Below, one piece after another: positions 30,001 through 36,000 of a stretch of DNA of 64,000 nt (positions within the stretch are counted from its first letter, which is position 1; each line of letters starts with the position of its first letter). The DNA is taken from the NCBI GenBank assembly GCA_963771175.1, contig CAVYSY010000040.1, positions 384,001 to 448,000 of the forward strand, given 5' to 3'. A program made the position numbers. This DNA is from an uncultured delta proteobacterium. Lineage in GTDB: Bacteria > Myxococcota > Myxococcia > Myxococcales > Myxococcaceae.

Positions 30001-33000
30001 GGGCGAGGGTGATCAGCGCGGAATTGTTGTTGACGGTGCTGACCGCGTACTGAGCGGAGTTTGAGTCCATGCCCAGGTTGCGGTGCGACTCCGTGCGGCT
30101 CACCACGAGCTGCGTCCCGTTGGACTTGTACTCGGTGACGGTGAGATTGAAGGTCGAGTCTGGATTGCTCGTGGCGTAGTCGACATCGAGCCGGAGGTTG
30201 TTGCCCCAGGCGCCCTCACTGCGCGCCGTGACGGAGAGGACGGACGTCCCGCCGAGGCTCTTCAGGGTCAGCGCGGCCTTGGAGGCGCCATTGGCGGTGC
30301 GCACCACCCACGCCTCGCTGCCGCCGTTGAGGAAGAATTGGCGGACCGCGTAGCTCACCTCGCTGTCGCGGCTCAGCCCACCGAAGGCCCGCTCGAAGTC
30401 ACCAAAGTTGAACAACTGTATGGGCTCTTCGACCGGCCCCTGGGCGGTGAAGCCGACGAAGGCCGTCACGGAGGTACCCACTCCCGTGATGGTACGGACT
30501 CCGCTCGGAATCTCCTCGACGTAGACTCCCGGGTACGTGGGCGCGACAGGCATTTGCGTTTCCCCCTCGATGCGCGTTCCACGTCGTCAACCAAAGCTAA
30601 ACGCGCTAGCCCGGATCTCTATAAAAAAGCCGGGTTCTACTGTCAATCGATGAAGTGAGCACGAGGACCCCGCATCACCTGGCAAAAGCCCGGAGCGCCT
30701 CATCCCAACTCAGCCGGGAGCACCGCTCCACCCACCGCGCCACGGTCTCCGCTCCCGTTCTCGCGGCCAGCGCCACCACGGCGGCCTTTTCGAGCGGTGC
30801 ATCGAAACGCTCGCGCGCGTCCCTGGCCAGCTTCTGCACGTCCACGGGGCTGGTCAGGTATGCCACCGCCAGGCCTCCCGGTCGGGTGAGCGCCTCGTAG
30901 GCGCGGCGCAACCGCTGGAACCCCTCCAGATCCTGGTGAGGTGGGTGCCGCGCCAGCGCGGCGAAGTATGCGCTCTTGACGGCGACCGGGTCCATCGTAG
31001 GCGCCAACCCCAATACGGCGAACGGCTCTTCGGGCGTCATATCAGCTGCTCTCCTCCCCTTCCTCCGGAGAGACAGCCTTCGGGGGGCTTCTCTCGGACT
31101 CCTTCGGTGGCGCCGCACCCTCCGCGGCGGGCTTCTTCTTCGAGCGTGACGCACGGCGCGCCGTGGTGCTCGCGGCCTTCTTCTTCCGCGAAGCCCCGCG
31201 CTTGCGCAGCCGGTGCCCATGCTCGTGCGCCAACGCCTGCGCCTGCTCCACCACCGGGGCATGGAGAGCGGGTAACTGCTCCGACAGGGCCCGCATGAAG
31301 GCCTCCAGCACCGGGTGGAGGTACTTGCAAGGGGTGTTCATCCTCCCGGCGGCCACCACCGCCTCGGCGAGCGCCAGCACATTGGCGGCGCGGCGCTCCA
31401 GCCAGCGTTCCAGAATGCGCCTGGCGAGCGCCTCCCGACCGAACACCTCCATCGTACGGAGCGCCTCGATATGCCCCGTGTTCCCAGGATGGGCCTCCAG
31501 GTACCGCACGGCGGCATCCCATGCCTCGGCATCCGAGGAAGCATGGCGCACCGCCTCCTCGAGGAACTCCACCTGGTAGGTCAGCACCCTGGGAGCGAAC
31601 CGGCGCCAGATGCGCAGGCCGTTCCCGGTCAGCTTCATCGAGGAGTAGACCTGCTCCATCGCTCCCTCCATCCCCATCAGCATCCGCTCTGCCTCCTCCA
31701 TGTTCCGCGCGCCGCGCAGCAGCCGCTCCAACTGCCGTCCTCCCTGCTTCATCCGACTGCGGTCCAGCAGGATACAGACGGCTTCGCTGAGTTCCCTCCG
31801 AAGCTCCTCGGTCGCGTCCTCCCAGCAGACATCCACCCATGACTCCACCAGGTCCGGTGCGCAGGTAGAGGCCACGCACTCGATCAACTCCATCCGCTCA
31901 GAGGGCACGGCCCCACCCAGCCAGGACAGCAGGGAAGAGGCCTCCGTAGCGACCAGCCGGCCCAAGCCCTCCTGGAGCCACCCGGGTGCGTTTGGCGCCT
32001 CGGGGTTCTGCTCGCACCAGGCCAGGAAGGCCCGCGCCCAGAGGGGCGCGTTCGCGCTCCGGGCCAGCAATTCCTGGTAGAGGCCCAGCGCCCGCGGCAG
32101 GGCCGCCCCCTCGAAGCGGAGCCCGGACACCGCCTGCACCACCCAGGGCTGGGCCGACGGTTGGAGCGCCGCGGCCTGAGCCAGGGTGCATAGGGGCTCG
32201 GCGTCCTCGATGCGCGAGACGACCGTCTGCGCAAGCCCCGCGGCTACCACCCGCAGCGCCTGCAACGTAGGAGCGGACAGGGCCTCGGGGGCTCCTCCCT
32301 CACGCACCGCCCGGGCCAACAGCGAGGCTGACTCCGAGAGAGCGGCGTGCCCCTTGCCCTCCGCCGCCCGGAGCCACAGCTCTCGCGCCGCCAGCTGTCC
32401 CGCCAGCTCCCATACCGCCCGAGCTACCTCGGCGGGTGCCGCTCGTGCCCACGCCTCGGCGCGGCTGGCGAAGACGGGGAAGGGCTCGAGCGCGCACAGG
32501 GCGAGGAGCGCCCCTTCCACCTCCTCCAGCGAGCGGGGCGGCGGCAGCGAGACGCGCTGGCTCGGCGGTTCGATTCCCAGGAGCGAATCCACCGGGGGCA
32601 GGCGCTCGAGCGCCGGGGCGATGAGCTCTGGAGAGGGGCTCCCCTCGGAGGAGAGCCAGCCATCCATCGCCCTGGCCAGAAGGGGCGCATGCGCTCGCGC
32701 CGGGTCGGTGAGGGGTTGCCACAGCCGCCGCGCGCGCTCCCAATCGCGGGCGCGGCCCGCCGCCCATACCAGTGGCCAGTACGTGGCCCAGGCCTCCTCT
32801 GGAGCCGCGCCTCGCTCCACCAGGCCGGGCTCGGCGTCCACGCGCACGGCCTGGGTGCTGAGCGTCCTCCAGGAGCCGCGGCGGTGCTGCTCCCGGACGG
32901 CCTGCCGGAAGAGGGCGGCGCCGCTGGGGAGCAGTTCCTCCCGCAGCGGCGGTGGCAGCCGCAGTAGCGCGGACAGCATCCCCTCCAGGTCCCCTCGTTC

Positions 33001-36000
33001 CTGGTACTTTCGGGCCTCCTCCAGCCACTGACGGTGCTGGCGCCCGGTGCGGTCGTGCTTCACCATGGCTCAGGGCTCCGGGAGTCCCGGCCCGTGTTCG
33101 AGATTGAGGAAGAAATCCAGGAGCGCCTCCTCCGCGCGCTCGCGCGCCACGCCTTGGGCCTGCGCGTACTGGTCAAGAAGCCGCTTCAACTCGGCGCGGA
33201 GCCCGGGAGGGAGCCGCTCGAGCAGGGCATGCCCCTTGCGCTCCACCGCGCTCTGCCCCGGCGCCAGGGCCGGGACGGCCTTGCCCACGTCCGCCACCGA
33301 GAGGGCCACCGTCTTGGCGTTCGCCGTGCCGGGCTGGCTGACGGATACCTTCACCACCCCGTTGAGGTCGTAGGCGAACTCCACCCGCACCGGTGAGTTC
33401 GCGGGCCGGGGCTCGAGCGGGAAATCGAAGGCCCCCACCCGCGTGTTCTCCGAGACTCGGCGCGACTCGCCCTGAAACACCTCCACCTCGACGAGCTCCT
33501 GCTCGGGCACCAGGGTGTAGAACTCCTCCACCTTCGTTGTCGGCAACACCGTGTTGCGGCGGAGGACCGGGGCGAAGGTATCCGGCGTGGTGCTCCCGAG
33601 GTCGTCCTGTCCGATGACGCGCATGCCCAGGCTGTGCGACGCCACATCCACGAGGATGCGTCCCACCGGCTCGCCGGACAACATGCCGGCCTGGATGGCC
33701 GCGCCCAGCCCCACGGCCAGGTCTGGATCCACTTCCTCATGGATGTCTACTCCGAATGCCTCCTCCAGCATCTGGCGGACCCGAGGGATCCGCGTCGAGC
33801 CTCCCACCAAGCATATCTTGGACAGCGATTGCCCCTCGAGCCGGGCCTCCGCCAGGGCCTGGCGGGTCAGGGCCACGGTGGACTCGAGCAGCGGCTCGAT
33901 GAGCGCCTCGAAGTCGCGCCGCCGCACCTCCAGCTCGAGGTGGATGGGCCTGCCTTGCGCCTGGGTGAGGAACTCCTCCTTCACGTGCACGGAGATGTCC
34001 GCGGACAGACGGATCTTCGTCTCCTCGGCCAGCTGGCGCAGGCGCGCCATGGCCCGCACGTCCTCGCGAGGCTCCACGCCCTGCTTCTTGAGCTCCTCGA
34101 GGAAGAGCTGAACGAGCTTGTCGTCGAAGTCGTCCCCGCCCAGGTGGGTGTTGCCCGCGGTGGAGCGCACCTCGCGCACCCCCTGGAACACCTCGAGCAC
34201 CGACACGTCGAACGTGCCGCCCCCCAGGTCGTAGACGAGAAGGATCTCGGGCTCGGCCACACGGAGGACCTCGGGATGCAGCACGCGCTCATACAGGAGC
34301 GAGGCGCTGGTGGGCTCATTGAGCAGCCGCAACACGTGCAGCCCCGCGCGCTGGCCGGCCTCGAGGGTTGCGCGGCGCTGGGCGTCATCGAAGTAGGCAG
34401 GCACGGTAATGACCACGTCACGCACGGGGACGCCGGTGGCCTTCTCGGCTCCCCGCTTGAGCGCGGACAGGATTTCGGCGGAGACCTCCTCGGGAGACAC
34501 CTCGCGCCCGGCGATGGAGTAGCGGTGGAGCGTCCCCATCTTGCGCTTGGCCGAGCGGATGCACCGCTCGGGCCTCAGCAGCTCGAGGTTGCGCGCCTCG
34601 CGCCCCACGACGACACGATTGTCCTCGTAGAGCACCACCGAGGGGACGATGCGACTGCCTTCCACTGGCACGGCCACCGGGCGGCCCTCCACCAGGTGGG
34701 CGATGACAGAGTTGGTCGTACCCAGATCGATTCCAAAGACATGGCTCAAGGGGTATTCCTCACGATGATGGCTTCGCCCTCGCGAATGAGGCGCTCCCCC
34801 CGCAGGGCGGCGGCGCGAACCACGCGGGCAATGGCGCCCTCGGCGAAGCTGGGGTGGGGCTGAGTGCCTACAATCCGGAACAGGCGCCCGTCAGGAACGT
34901 GGCCGATGGAGGCCAGGCGCGTGATCCCGGAGGAGTTCAGAAAGCGCTCGATCCGGGCCGCCACCCCCATGAGTCCCGATGCGAGCGCCGCATCCGCCGC
35001 GACGCGGGAAGCCTCTTCGAGCAGATCCAGGGCATCCAGGAGCTCGTCCCAGGGGGGCTCGCGCCCCGAAGAGTTGCCCGACGTAGCGCCGCGGAGAGAA
35101 GAGAGCGAGCCCCTCAGCTCCGCGAGTCCCCCTTCCAGCTTGCGCTCCAGATCCTCGACATGGAGGGCCAGACGGGCCTGGGCCCGGGAGGACTTCTGGA
35201 CGGCATCCAGAAGCAGGGTGCCCCAGGTGGGAGGCGTCTCGGCAGGTAGTGTGGCCCCGGGCACTCCTGAACGTCCAATGAACAGGCGTCTCAGCCAGGT
35301 GAACATCAAATCAACGCCGCTCGTTTCCGACCGGCGCTCCATGCAAAGCAGAATCAGAGCCACGGCTTCAGTTCACGCACCAACGCTCGTGGCCGCGCCA
35401 AACAGCTCACCGCAACGCGATGACCCCTCCCGCTCGCGCGGATGTGTCTCCCATTCTTCTCTCGATACGGGCATTCCTGGGGCCTACTTCTCCCATGGGG
35501 CTCCATGACATGACCTCGCCCGTCATGTCCAGTACTTCCTTCTCGCTTCCATCCCCCCTTGGGAAGGCCCTCTCCCATGAGCGGGTACAGGTAAAGGATG
35601 TCTGTTGTTGAGAGTGAGACGGAGCGAAGCCGCAACCGCGGCGGCAACTGCCCCCTGCTCCGGCTGCCACTCCCGGAACGGTCTCGGCGAGGCGTAGCGG
35701 GCACCGCCCTTCGTTTCCTCCCGCTCCGGCCTCTCACTGGCGGCTACTTCCAACAGGGCGGCCTGCTCCGGCTTCTTCCTCGAGGTGGTGCTCACCCTCG
35801 ACCTTCAACCAGAACTCGCCTTCCCCCTGAAGGACCACCTGGGGCGTCTCCCCTCTGGTCCACCCTATACGGTGGGGTGCTCCGTCAGTCCTCGCGTGCC
35901 ACGGGCTCCCCACACGGCATCCTCCTTGCGGGCTGCCGCCACAACGCGCTCACGCCCGTCCACCCGCATCCGTTCATCTTGGGTACGCAGCGGCTGCATG

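Follow-up and report, generated by a model that had tools for sequence, protein, structure and literature searches.

Gene order and inheritance of the cassette

How would a bacterium whose genome encodes a separate canonical DnaK use a second, short Hsp70, and what do the GrpE-like, DUF6109 and J-fold proteins encoded beside it contribute? The window analysed here (64,000 nucleotides of a contig from an uncultured member of the Myxococcaceae) holds the four genes as co-directional ORFs on the minus strand, at 30675..35306 (Table 1), with a 4-nt overlap between the GrpE-like and Hsp70 genes, a 3-nt gap before DUF6109 and a 1-nt gap before the J gene. A first-pass annotation had found DUF6109 in 14 of 201 Myxococcia genomes, in agreement with the 23 of 401 genomes of the phylum and at least 25 of 367 genomes of the class (about 7%) that carry it in our counts. 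Among 24 loci, which represent 23 distinct genomes (L003 and L049 are identical), the order GrpE-like, Hsp70, DUF6109, J was complete in 22 of 23 genomes, down to about 30% identity in DUF6109; in the lone incomplete cassette (L050) the contig ends before the J gene. The reverse test used metagenome loci seeded with the J protein rather than with DUF6109, some of them near-duplicates, and gave a DUF6109 match in 27 of the 29 loci with at least 300 nt upstream and the full four-gene order in all eight loci with at least 4.7 kb upstream. Both the position of the ORFs and their common order in relatives, as first annotated, were thus borne out; the additional claim that they always form one operon holds for the near-invariant order but is slightly too strong for gene integrity, since DUF6109 is broken in L043 by a 901-bp insertion with a transposase-like ORF. 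In two runs from one study, one RNA-library contig per run stretches across the four genes, and ends of such contigs at 35487 and 35471, from a ~95%-alike organism in one study, give a weak hint of the leader. Judged from sequence, the GrpE-like protein, the ATPase Hsp70, the J-fold protein and the solenoid are passed on together as a unit.

Table 1. Features of the cassette, numbered from the first nucleotide of the window.
Feature	Position	Strand	Remarks
GrpE-like gene	34746..35306	-	186 aa; PF01025, E 3.4e-7, above cut-off
Hsp70 gene	33070..34749	-	559 aa; TTG start; PF00012, E 1.7e-123
DUF6109 gene	31042..33066	-	674 aa; alpha-solenoid; PF19604, 1155 bits
Mini J-domain gene	30675..31040	-	121 aa; PF00226, E 7e-4, 20 bits (cut-off 27.8 not reached)
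Pro-Pro-His triplet at HPD position	30936..30944	-	Alignment with E. coli DnaJ, DjlB and DjlC
J C-terminal extension, predicted DUF6109 docking element	30678..30884	-	Residues 54-122 of P0004; complex model
Predicted groove for the J extension (DUF6109 residues 58-385)	31912..32895	-	Complex model; includes near-invariant W97, G142 and R272
Disordered Lys/Arg-rich tail (DUF6109 residues ~618-674)	31045..31215	-	Model and homologue tails
5' leader/promoter region	35307..35487	-	Conserved among closest relatives only; without LexA box

The flanks of the cassette vary between relatives, its location shifts and its distribution is patchy. Such a pattern would suit an anti-phage or conflict system; the window's copy moreover lies between an extracellular contractile injection system (eCIS), for which it might serve as assembly chaperone, and an apparent toxin-immunity locus, and restriction or Abi genes adjoin the cassette in a few relatives. 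The available part of PMC7159879 places Hsp70, GrpE and a J- or TPR-bearing protein in the neighbourhoods of GAP1-N2 GTPase-centred conflict systems, which it describes as mainly actinobacterial and firmicute. No GTPase, GAP1-N2 or FNIII component was seen in the cassette, however, nor an effector or variable domain, and its Hsp70 is strongly conserved. PADLOC returned nothing on it except one fragment at E 0.005, J relatives were not found in viral contigs, and most of the flanking genes serve everyday metabolism or transport. A tblastn search with eCIS sheath and Pvc16 queries from the window gave no match in 65 relative loci, in line with the earlier remark that the eCIS is unlinked in relatives, and we regard a conflict or eCIS role as highly unlikely. 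The NCBI name "DUF6109 family natural product biosynthesis protein" implies yet another function, but the Pfam matches of 109 flanking ORFs from 31 loci contained no PKS/NRPS domain, only scattered P450s and oxidoreductases, and no enzyme fold was found. Because the flanks vary, this reading is largely refuted and retains hardly any credence.

The Hsp70 and its GrpE-like partner

The ATPase and allosteric residues of the cassette Hsp70 are intact. In DnaK numbering, D8, T11, K70, E171, D194, T199, P143 and D148 are invariant in 23 sequences, as are R151, R167, Q378, L391, P419 and E217; most J-contact residues are shared with the canonical DnaK-DnaJ-GrpE system, and linker position V389 is Arg in 22 of 23, a clade-specific change. 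Identity to canonical DnaK is only 34%, and the cassette lacks a class A/B DnaJ. Assignment as a canonical DnaK was rejected, as the protein stays far below the NCBIfam cut-offs (437 vs 648 bits and 427 vs 823 bits) and falls outside the DnaK clade. In a tree that held three HscC sequences only, HscC was the nearest named group (split from DnaK/HscA 0.98), whilst the cassette and cyanobacterial Hsp70s formed their own clade (support 1.0), separated from HscC by long branches. Together with the catalytic residues kept in 23 of 23 sequences, the variable flanks and the unlinked eCIS, this position upholds the initial description of a self-contained specialised chaperone module.

Like E. coli HscC, the protein falls within 550-580 aa and combines a lobe-IB deletion (a 24-aa gap at DnaK 76-101 that aligns with the HscC gap), a D211-loop deletion, an acidic L1,2 insertion (9 aa in the window's copy) and a shortened lid, which extends 67-100 residues beyond DnaK 503, against 136 in DnaK, in an alignment that is uncertain over the lid; the latch residues D540 and H544 are gone. 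Unlike HscC, to which it is 36.5% identical on a separate branch, it has its own GrpE gene and retains the GrpE signature loop (DnaK 290-295) in 23 of 23 sequences; the loop is missing in both HscC references, and its retention implies GrpE dependence.

The HscC-like indels, together with a J loop of the DjlB/DjlC type, raise the question of whether the cassette is a membrane-side chaperone for envelope or metal stress. HscC is active at the membrane and confers protection from Cd2+ as well as UV, according to the accessible part of PMC8215388, and an alignment of 24 GrpE-like relatives shows a conserved N-terminal W-x-R-R-L-F segment, possibly a membrane-binding helix that would replace the DjlB/DjlC tail anchor. 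The hydrophobic moment of this N-terminus is nevertheless unexceptional in most relatives (percentile 0.62-0.99), inspection by eye revealed no obvious transmembrane segment in any cassette member, long branches divide the Hsp70 from HscC, and the clamp-like tails described below would be left unexplained. A membrane-side role consequently appears unlikely.

A mini J protein with Pro-Pro-His at the HPD position

The J protein consists of a J domain with the six-residue-shorter loop of DjlB/DjlC and a helical extension of ~65 residues. Its model (pLDDT 93.9) retrieved J domains as the top Foldseek rows, with probability 1.0 and E 0.02-0.05. The J domain, previously read from an "HPP-like" motif, is therefore confirmed as a fold, although the triplet itself is PPH, HPP being one residue out of register. 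PPH occupies the HPD-equivalent position in 109 of 120 homologues, with other variants in 10 and one not parsed; neither HPD nor HPE occurred among the parsed triplets.

According to the parts of PMC13254874 and PMC8215388 at hand, stimulation of Hsp70 is lost, in the systems covered there, when HPD is replaced by anything but HPE, and the former, a 2026 review, calls it still enigmatic whether altered-HPD J domains arose by accident or were selected. The cassette protein could on these grounds be a pseudo-J (type IV), a structural or inhibitory subunit of a DUF6109 complex that does not trigger the ATPase of an Hsp70 activated otherwise: the His and the Asp of HPD are both replaced, HPE is the sole tolerated change that these reviews, as far as available, report, and the profile score lies under the DnaJ cut-off. 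Against this, conservation within the protein is highest in the Hsp70-facing helices, with K23, F27, P35, D38, F42, R46, Y49 and E50 invariant, the Hsp70 keeps R167, Q378, L391, P419 and E217 in 23 of 23 sequences, and the immediate flanks of the cassettes showed no second J gene. We thus consider a pseudo-J rather unlikely. The cassette offers a clean test of the altered-HPD question: a near-invariant PPH J domain is passed on together with a single Hsp70 that has intact catalytic and J-contact residues and a clade-specific linker Arg, and the four proteins are all of a size that can be purified.

Predicted docking of the J extension into DUF6109

The DUF6109 model (pLDDT 82.8) is essentially all helix, which matches the all-helical solenoid (pLDDT 83) of the earlier annotation, and its fold matches are generic HEAT/ARM/TPR-like only. 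Family profiles and a fold search detected no catalytic or sensor domain. What is new here is that co-folding predicts the J C-terminal extension inserted into this solenoid, with the Hsp70-facing helices left free. The pair scored 0.72, 0.71 and 0.72, against 0.00 for the best of three controls; the runs share at least 92% of contacts, and the partner pLDDT is at least 85. The mark applied is reached by 116 of 157 solved pairs and 2 of 215 mismatched pairs, counts that hold only roughly here because the alignments were self-made, and by the tool's own figure 7 of 44 blindly chosen neighbour pairs also passed. A pass by memory of a like complex is unlikely because DUF6109 has no sequence relative among solved structures (best E 0.05). 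None of J residues 19-53 lies in the predicted interface, which includes J residues P55, A61, P66, R79 and A87 and, of the six near-invariant residues in DUF6109, three (W97, G142 and R272). Conservation at the interface exceeds that elsewhere by only a modest margin (p 0.02 for residues 1-620; p 0.10 when the comparison stays inside the same region).

Since the modelled complex buries the extension and leaves the Hsp70-facing helices free, DUF6109 appears to be the targeting half of a J co-chaperone made of two chains, in the way that AtcC serves AtcJ, and the pair probably steers the cassette Hsp70 to one particular target. In Shewanella, as described in the accessible portions of PMC6715715 and bioRxiv 10.64898/2026.09.07.749886, the short J protein AtcJ uses a C-terminal extension to bind the operon-encoded AtcC, and together they bring Hsp70 to a target complex. 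This system offers the best functional analogy to the predicted pair. AtcJ, in the same partial accounts, has HPD, a 21-aa extension and the housekeeping DnaK, whereas the cassette combines PPH, ~65 residues and a private Hsp70 and GrpE; its Pfam/NCBIfam matches include no Atc family, and it has no AtcB-like gene.

The suggestion that DUF6109 is a scaffold or client is sharpened by this prediction, a targeting subunit being more likely, with the client role as a rival. As a client, DUF6109 would be tethered by J, which delivers Hsp70 onto the basic tail and so switches the solenoid between inactive and active states, as in a chaperone-gated sensor or regulator. The predicted interface is also compatible with this, and the charges fit: the tail is near-universally basic, cyanobacterial TPR partners likewise end in a basic patch, and the Hsp70 substrate domain is acidic (SBD-beta net charge -3 to -9, vs -1 in DnaK; L1,2 loop -1 to -5), HscC itself binding mainly by positive charge in the part of PMC8215388 available. 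The E. coli HscC domain, though, reaches a comparable acidity (-5) where no partner gene of this kind exists, the solenoid has no detectable catalytic or sensor domain, and its conservation peaks in the J-binding N-terminal half. A client role is hence a minority reading that we doubt.

The DUF6109 tail and a proposed mechanism

The tail is basic in 84 of 93 homologues, against 306 of 3693 ORFs of the window's own genome. In many of the distant homologues the C-terminal end resembles a clamp motif or an SSB tail; the window's copy has neither. The published clamp motif (Q-phi-x-L-F or Q-phi-x-L-x-L in a flexible segment) occurs in 12 of 93 tails, where shuffles predict 0.13, and the J-seeded set has it in 9 of 28 tails; the background, drawn from one genome, was 26 of 5517 own-genome tails, with 0 of 120 among J tails. 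By this definition the motif is missing from 81 of the 93 tails and from the window's own DUF6109. Flanks of relatives held no conserved DNA-metabolism neighbours, and the Myxococcus SOS (LexA) box had at least four mismatches in 26 of 26 cassette upstream regions, compared with 0-2 in 10 of 10 lexA/recA2 control regions.

We marginally favour the view that the operon is a private Hsp70 machine built round a two-chain J co-chaperone. First, a working-looking short-lid Hsp70, its own GrpE, the J-fold protein and the solenoid form, by sequence, one inherited unit; second, the J C-terminal helices are predicted to wrap into the N-terminal half of DUF6109 with J helices II-III free, so that two genes would rebuild what DjlB/DjlC-type or J-TPR proteins carry in one chain. 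These two steps, taken jointly, seem quite likely. The closest longer J relatives are single-chain J-TPR or J-helical-TM proteins. Third, the PPH J domain may stimulate only its co-evolved Hsp70, in which changes specific to the clade adjoin the J site; this would insulate the system from the housekeeping DnaK, with GrpE resetting the cycle, a step that we hold to be reasonably probable. Fourth and weakest, the choice of target might fall to the solenoid's free C-terminal half and its basic tail; the target is guessed to be a nucleic-acid-bound protein complex, reached via the sliding clamp in some lineages, which the short-lid Hsp70 could loosen or dismantle. DnaK loosens or dismantles RepE dimers and lambda O-P-DnaB, and AtcJ-AtcC-DnaK acts likewise on AtcB bound to RNA polymerase. 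A DNA-linked target is a tentative proposal, and more doubtful still is the full version, in which a split PPH mini-J/solenoid co-chaperone with an HPD-independent interface is tail-delivered to DNA-bound complexes through clamp-binding or SSB-tail-like motifs that replace one another from lineage to lineage.

If true, the adaptor logic of AtcJ-AtcC would carry over to an orthogonal chaperone set, in which a J co-chaperone of two chains has an Hsp70 and a GrpE of its own. Should the tail motifs bind the sliding clamp, a specialised Hsp70 would be tied to DNA metabolism, which might be relevant to the part that HscC plays in UV resistance, and tail delivery, if correct, would mean that a bacterial Hsp70 is reserved for the remodelling of assemblies in replication or repair.

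Related chaperone operons

In the sources as partly available, HscC with DjlB/DjlC resembles the cassette in that an exclusive Hsp70-J pair is encoded together; DjlB and DjlC themselves carry HPE in tail-anchored chains of 475-483 aa, unlike the soluble 121-aa PPH protein with its separate solenoid. Cyanobacterial plasmids (Nostoc NZ_CP151103, Acaryochloris NZ_CP064921) carry TPR-J-GrpE-Hsp70 operons with the same four component types, a sister Hsp70 clade (45% identity, support 1.0), a related mini-J (probability 97%) with the triplet PAH, and a solenoid with a basic C-terminal patch. Their solenoid, unlike DUF6109, is a recognisable ~840-aa TPR protein, and a comparison of the DUF6109 profile with this single sequence gave no detectable homology (probability 0.1). 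The cassette is one member of a wider class of operons that combine a solenoid, an HPD-less J protein, GrpE and a short Hsp70. Gene order differs in the cyanobacterial operon, where the solenoid and J genes are still adjacent and the GrpE-Hsp70 block lies on the other side.

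A four-gene chaperone cassette inherited as a unit

Four closely packed ORFs, encoding a GrpE-like protein, an Hsp70, a DUF6109 protein and a J-like protein, make up the cassette; the first two overlap by 4 nt, and the next junctions are gaps of 3 nt and 1 nt. DUF6109 was present in 23 of 401 genomes of the phylum, 22 of them in the family of the source organism (own genome included), and in at least 25 of 367 genomes at class level; its nearest relatives carry the labels Archangium, Cystobacter, Hyalangium and Stigmatella. It extends beyond the sample behind the first-pass annotation: a profile search retrieved 147 cluster representatives, and the named members include some from Polyangia and Binatia.

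Features of the cassette, its surroundings and related loci (window positions unless a relative's locus, L, or the source contig, G000:C40, is named)
Feature	Position	Strand	Size	Remark
Cassette	35306-30675	minus
GrpE-like protein		minus	186 aa	Pfam
Hsp70		minus	559 aa	Pfam
DUF6109 protein		minus	674 aa	Pfam
J-like protein		minus	121 aa	Pfam
eCIS-type locus (sheath, tube, baseplate, Pvc16)	23009-30553	minus
Partly repeated upstream non-coding region	35635-35887
Lipoprotein-like ORF, then small ORFs	35885-38295		453 aa (first ORF)	No Pfam match
groEL	40205-41850			Frameshifted
lexA	G000:C40:448392-448583			Just past window end
Insertion in DUF6109 of a relative	L043:9865-10765		901 bp	Transposase-like ORF
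Cyanobacterial plasmid TPR-J(PAH)-GrpE-Hsp70 operons	L094:3206-8749, L095:3511-8731

The invariant gene order proposed in that annotation held in 22 of 23 genomes (24 loci, L003 and L049 being identical), the remaining locus, L050, being truncated by a contig end. An independent search that started from the J protein gave 41 metagenome loci, with a DUF6109 match in 27 of the 29 that had at least 300 nt upstream and the full order in all eight that had at least 4.7 kb upstream, although several loci are near-duplicates and the order counts are thus not independent. The two misses were L060, where a typical basic tail closes the upstream ORF, and L088, where the J protein (P0326) is fused in frame to a flavoprotein N-terminus in what is probably a chimeric assembly. 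Sequence comparison thus establishes the co-inheritance of the cassette and the conservation of its residues. The genes around it vary among genomes (109 ORFs, 31 loci), which speaks against the very unlikely alternative of a cassette serving biosynthesis.

In one relative, L043, an insertion splits DUF6109 and leaves the other three genes intact; we take its transposase-like ORF to be IS5-like. No relatives of the cassette J protein were found in viral contigs. Two very short unannotated 'phage' records (OR845923.1, OR851168.1) contain a J-like fragment with 44% identity to the mini-J protein, possibly host DNA.

An Hsp70 with partial likeness to HscC

The short Hsp70 of the first-pass annotation was upheld by both ORF length and Pfam. 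Its sequence identity is highest with Hsp70s of cyanobacterial plasmids (45%), followed by HscC (36.5%) and E. coli DnaK (34%). In a tree of 26 sequences and 486 columns (cut at residue 520, one broken Rhizobium ORF omitted), the cassette and cyanobacterial sequences formed one group with support of 1.0, whose nearest named branch was HscC, with DnaK apart. With genes for TPR, mini-J, GrpE and Hsp70 proteins, the cyanobacterial operons match the cassette in their types of component, but not in gene order. Between DUF6109 and the cyanobacterial TPR protein, whose gene has matches in four Acaryochloris plasmid records (three of them belonging to a single strain), no homology was detected.

The catalytic residues and most of the allosteric ones do not vary among the 23 cassette Hsp70s, in which D211 is deleted and D477 replaced (DnaK numbering); clade-specific changes include an Arg at linker position V389 (22/23) and an acidic L1,2 loop. 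Compared with the HscC features described in section 12 of PMC8215388, as far as its available text goes, the cassette Hsp70 has the deletions in lobe IB and in the D211 loop, the insertion in L1,2 and the short lid, whereas the GrpE loop lost in HscC is kept, which fits a cassette with a GrpE of its own. The protein resembles HscC in its workings in several respects but departs from it in two defining features, and is for this reason not filed as HscC. The private GrpE would reset the cycle of this Hsp70.

A J domain with a PPH triplet

The J domain was confirmed by a structure model (pLDDT 93.9) that matches J domains, whereas the 'HPP' motif initially read from it is one residue off: alignment with E. 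coli DnaJ, DjlB and DjlC gives P-P-H at the HPD position, in a loop that is, as in DjlB and DjlC, six residues shorter than that of DnaJ. The triplet is PPH in 109 of 120 J homologues and PAH in the cyanobacterial mini-J proteins. According to the available text of two reviews (PMC8215388, PMC13254874), stimulation is abolished by every HPD replacement except HPE, and the meaning of HPD-variant J domains is enigmatic; a large survey, in its available part, placed non-HPD sequences outside its main dataset (PMC10410713). That only HPE is reported as tolerated speaks for the less likely alternative that the protein is a pseudo-J; against it, the J-contact residues R167, Q378, L391, P419 and E217 (DnaK numbering) are invariant in the 23 cassette Hsp70s.

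The closest longer relatives of the J protein are single-chain J-TPR or J-helical-TM proteins, and no DUF6109-J fusion occurred among 13 longer J matches, which is weak evidence. As for a membrane stress system, another and unlikely reading of the cassette, a candidate membrane-targeting helix on the GrpE-like protein was rejected, its hydrophobic moment being unremarkable.

Predicted contact between the J protein and the DUF6109 solenoid

The structure model of DUF6109 is, as anticipated, an all-helical solenoid, followed by a disordered tail. Foldseek and VIA-align returned generic solenoids only (best Z 12 at rmsd 24), the ESM Atlas had no match above 0.82, and no PDB sequence matched below E 0.05; these blank searches do not show the fold to be new. 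DUF6109 residues 1-620 modelled with the J protein scored 0.72, 0.71 and 0.72 in three runs, against 0.00 for three controls; the score mark was attained by 116 of the 157 solved pairs and by 2 of the 215 mismatched ones, rates that are only rough, own alignments being used. At least 92% of contacts agree between runs, and partner pLDDT is at least 85. The contact is thus a predicted one, and the models support binding rather than show it.

J residues 54-122 (numbered on P0004) are placed in DUF6109 residues 58-385, and J residues 19-53 contribute none of the interface. Three of six near-invariant DUF6109 residues, W97, G142 and R272, fall within it, although over the whole interface conservation is only modestly enriched (p 0.02; 0.10 when the comparison is confined to the same region). 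The predicted arrangement follows the same logic as AtcJ, whose C-terminal extension, according to the available parts of PMC6715715 and bioRxiv 10.64898/2026.09.07.749886, binds AtcC to recruit Hsp70. We consider it most likely that the two proteins together make up a targeting co-chaperone of two chains, although the predicted interface would also fit the less likely alternative that DUF6109 is itself the client. Acting at a specific complex, the J-DUF6109 pair would activate the private Hsp70 by way of a PPH interface that has co-evolved. Both activation and target are what we infer, and that the complex is nucleic-acid-bound is a guess we regard as doubtful. The cassette offers a sharp biochemical test.

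The literature search, which covered main texts and few subscription papers, found no paper on 'DUF6109' and no description of the operon; PMC11019930 and PMC9239167, in their available parts, concern other Hsp70 systems. The cassette is a real and apparently undescribed form of specialised-Hsp70 operon.

Basic tail of DUF6109

A basic tail (at least 7 Lys/Arg per 20-residue window near the C-terminus) was present in 84 of 93 DUF6109 homologues against 306 of 3693 own-genome ORFs. A first clamp-like pattern (35/93) was drawn after seeing the tails, and the published definition (bioRxiv 10.64898/2026.05.27.728225, available part) was relied on instead. By this definition, the last 40 residues contain the clamp motif in 12 of the 93 homologues. 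From 500 shuffles, 0.13 would be expected; internal windows matched at a rate of 0.2%, J tails not at all (0 of 120), and own-genome tails, a background from one genome only, in 26 of 5517 cases. Among J-seeded tails it was found in 9 of 28, including one duplicate pair and some overlap with the 93; the tail of homologue P0165 holds an exact Hda motif. A further 10 of the 93 end in [ILF]PF (2 of 5517 control tails), presumably resembling the SSB acidic tip. Examples are P0095, P0165 and L076 for the clamp motif, and P0057 and P0082 for tails ending in PF. The window's DUF6109 and its closest relatives carry neither clamp motif nor [ILF]PF ending, which counts against this lead, as do the one-genome background and the lack of a LexA box upstream of the cassettes. 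The basic tail could equally well be what an acidic, HscC-like pocket for substrates in the cassette Hsp70 takes hold of.

Transcription and upstream elements

A single RNA-seq contig spans the four genes in each of two runs (one study, organism ~95% alike), ending ~170-180 nt upstream of grpE; such contigs fit one transcript and cannot prove it. Coverage in two soil RNA runs, X1 and X2, was as high over the flanks as over the cassette, and these runs were uninformative on expression. An element, CCTACTT-N5-GGTTACA-N13-TGTGGTAG, is conserved ~45 nt 5′ of grpE in L037-L042, L054 and L068 and sits 7-12 nt before the grpE ATG; judged by eye, it suggests a leaderless sigma-70-type promoter. Archangium-type loci have another leader, of ~170 nt, instead, and a scan of the window for consensus promoters was negative.

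SOS control, raised by a LexA-like-looking element 5′ of grpE in six relatives, was rejected by a scan with the published box (PMC9705874, available part), which found none upstream of any of 26 cassettes; what is conserved at that place is the promoter-like element described above. The genome's own lexA lies ~30 kb from the cassette and has a near-perfect SOS box. Part of the upstream non-coding region is repeated at two or three other genome sites (~77-80% identity).

Neighbouring eCIS and putative toxin-immunity genes

The cassette adjoins a contractile injection system (eCIS) locus, several ORFs of which are frameshifted, as is groEL; this suggests assembly errors. Genome completeness is 82%. 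A link between cassette and eCIS was rejected: the window's sheath and Pvc16 genes matched none of 65 relative loci, in agreement with the earlier view that the two are unlinked in relatives. This speaks against the improbable alternative of a defence or eCIS assembly system; in its favour is the position of the cassette between the eCIS and, on the upstream side, a gene set that is possibly a toxin-immunity locus. The genes of this set are common to the upstream side of the cassette in L002, L004, L043, L047 and partly L048, and in L006 the same place is taken by an AHH nuclease and Imm11.
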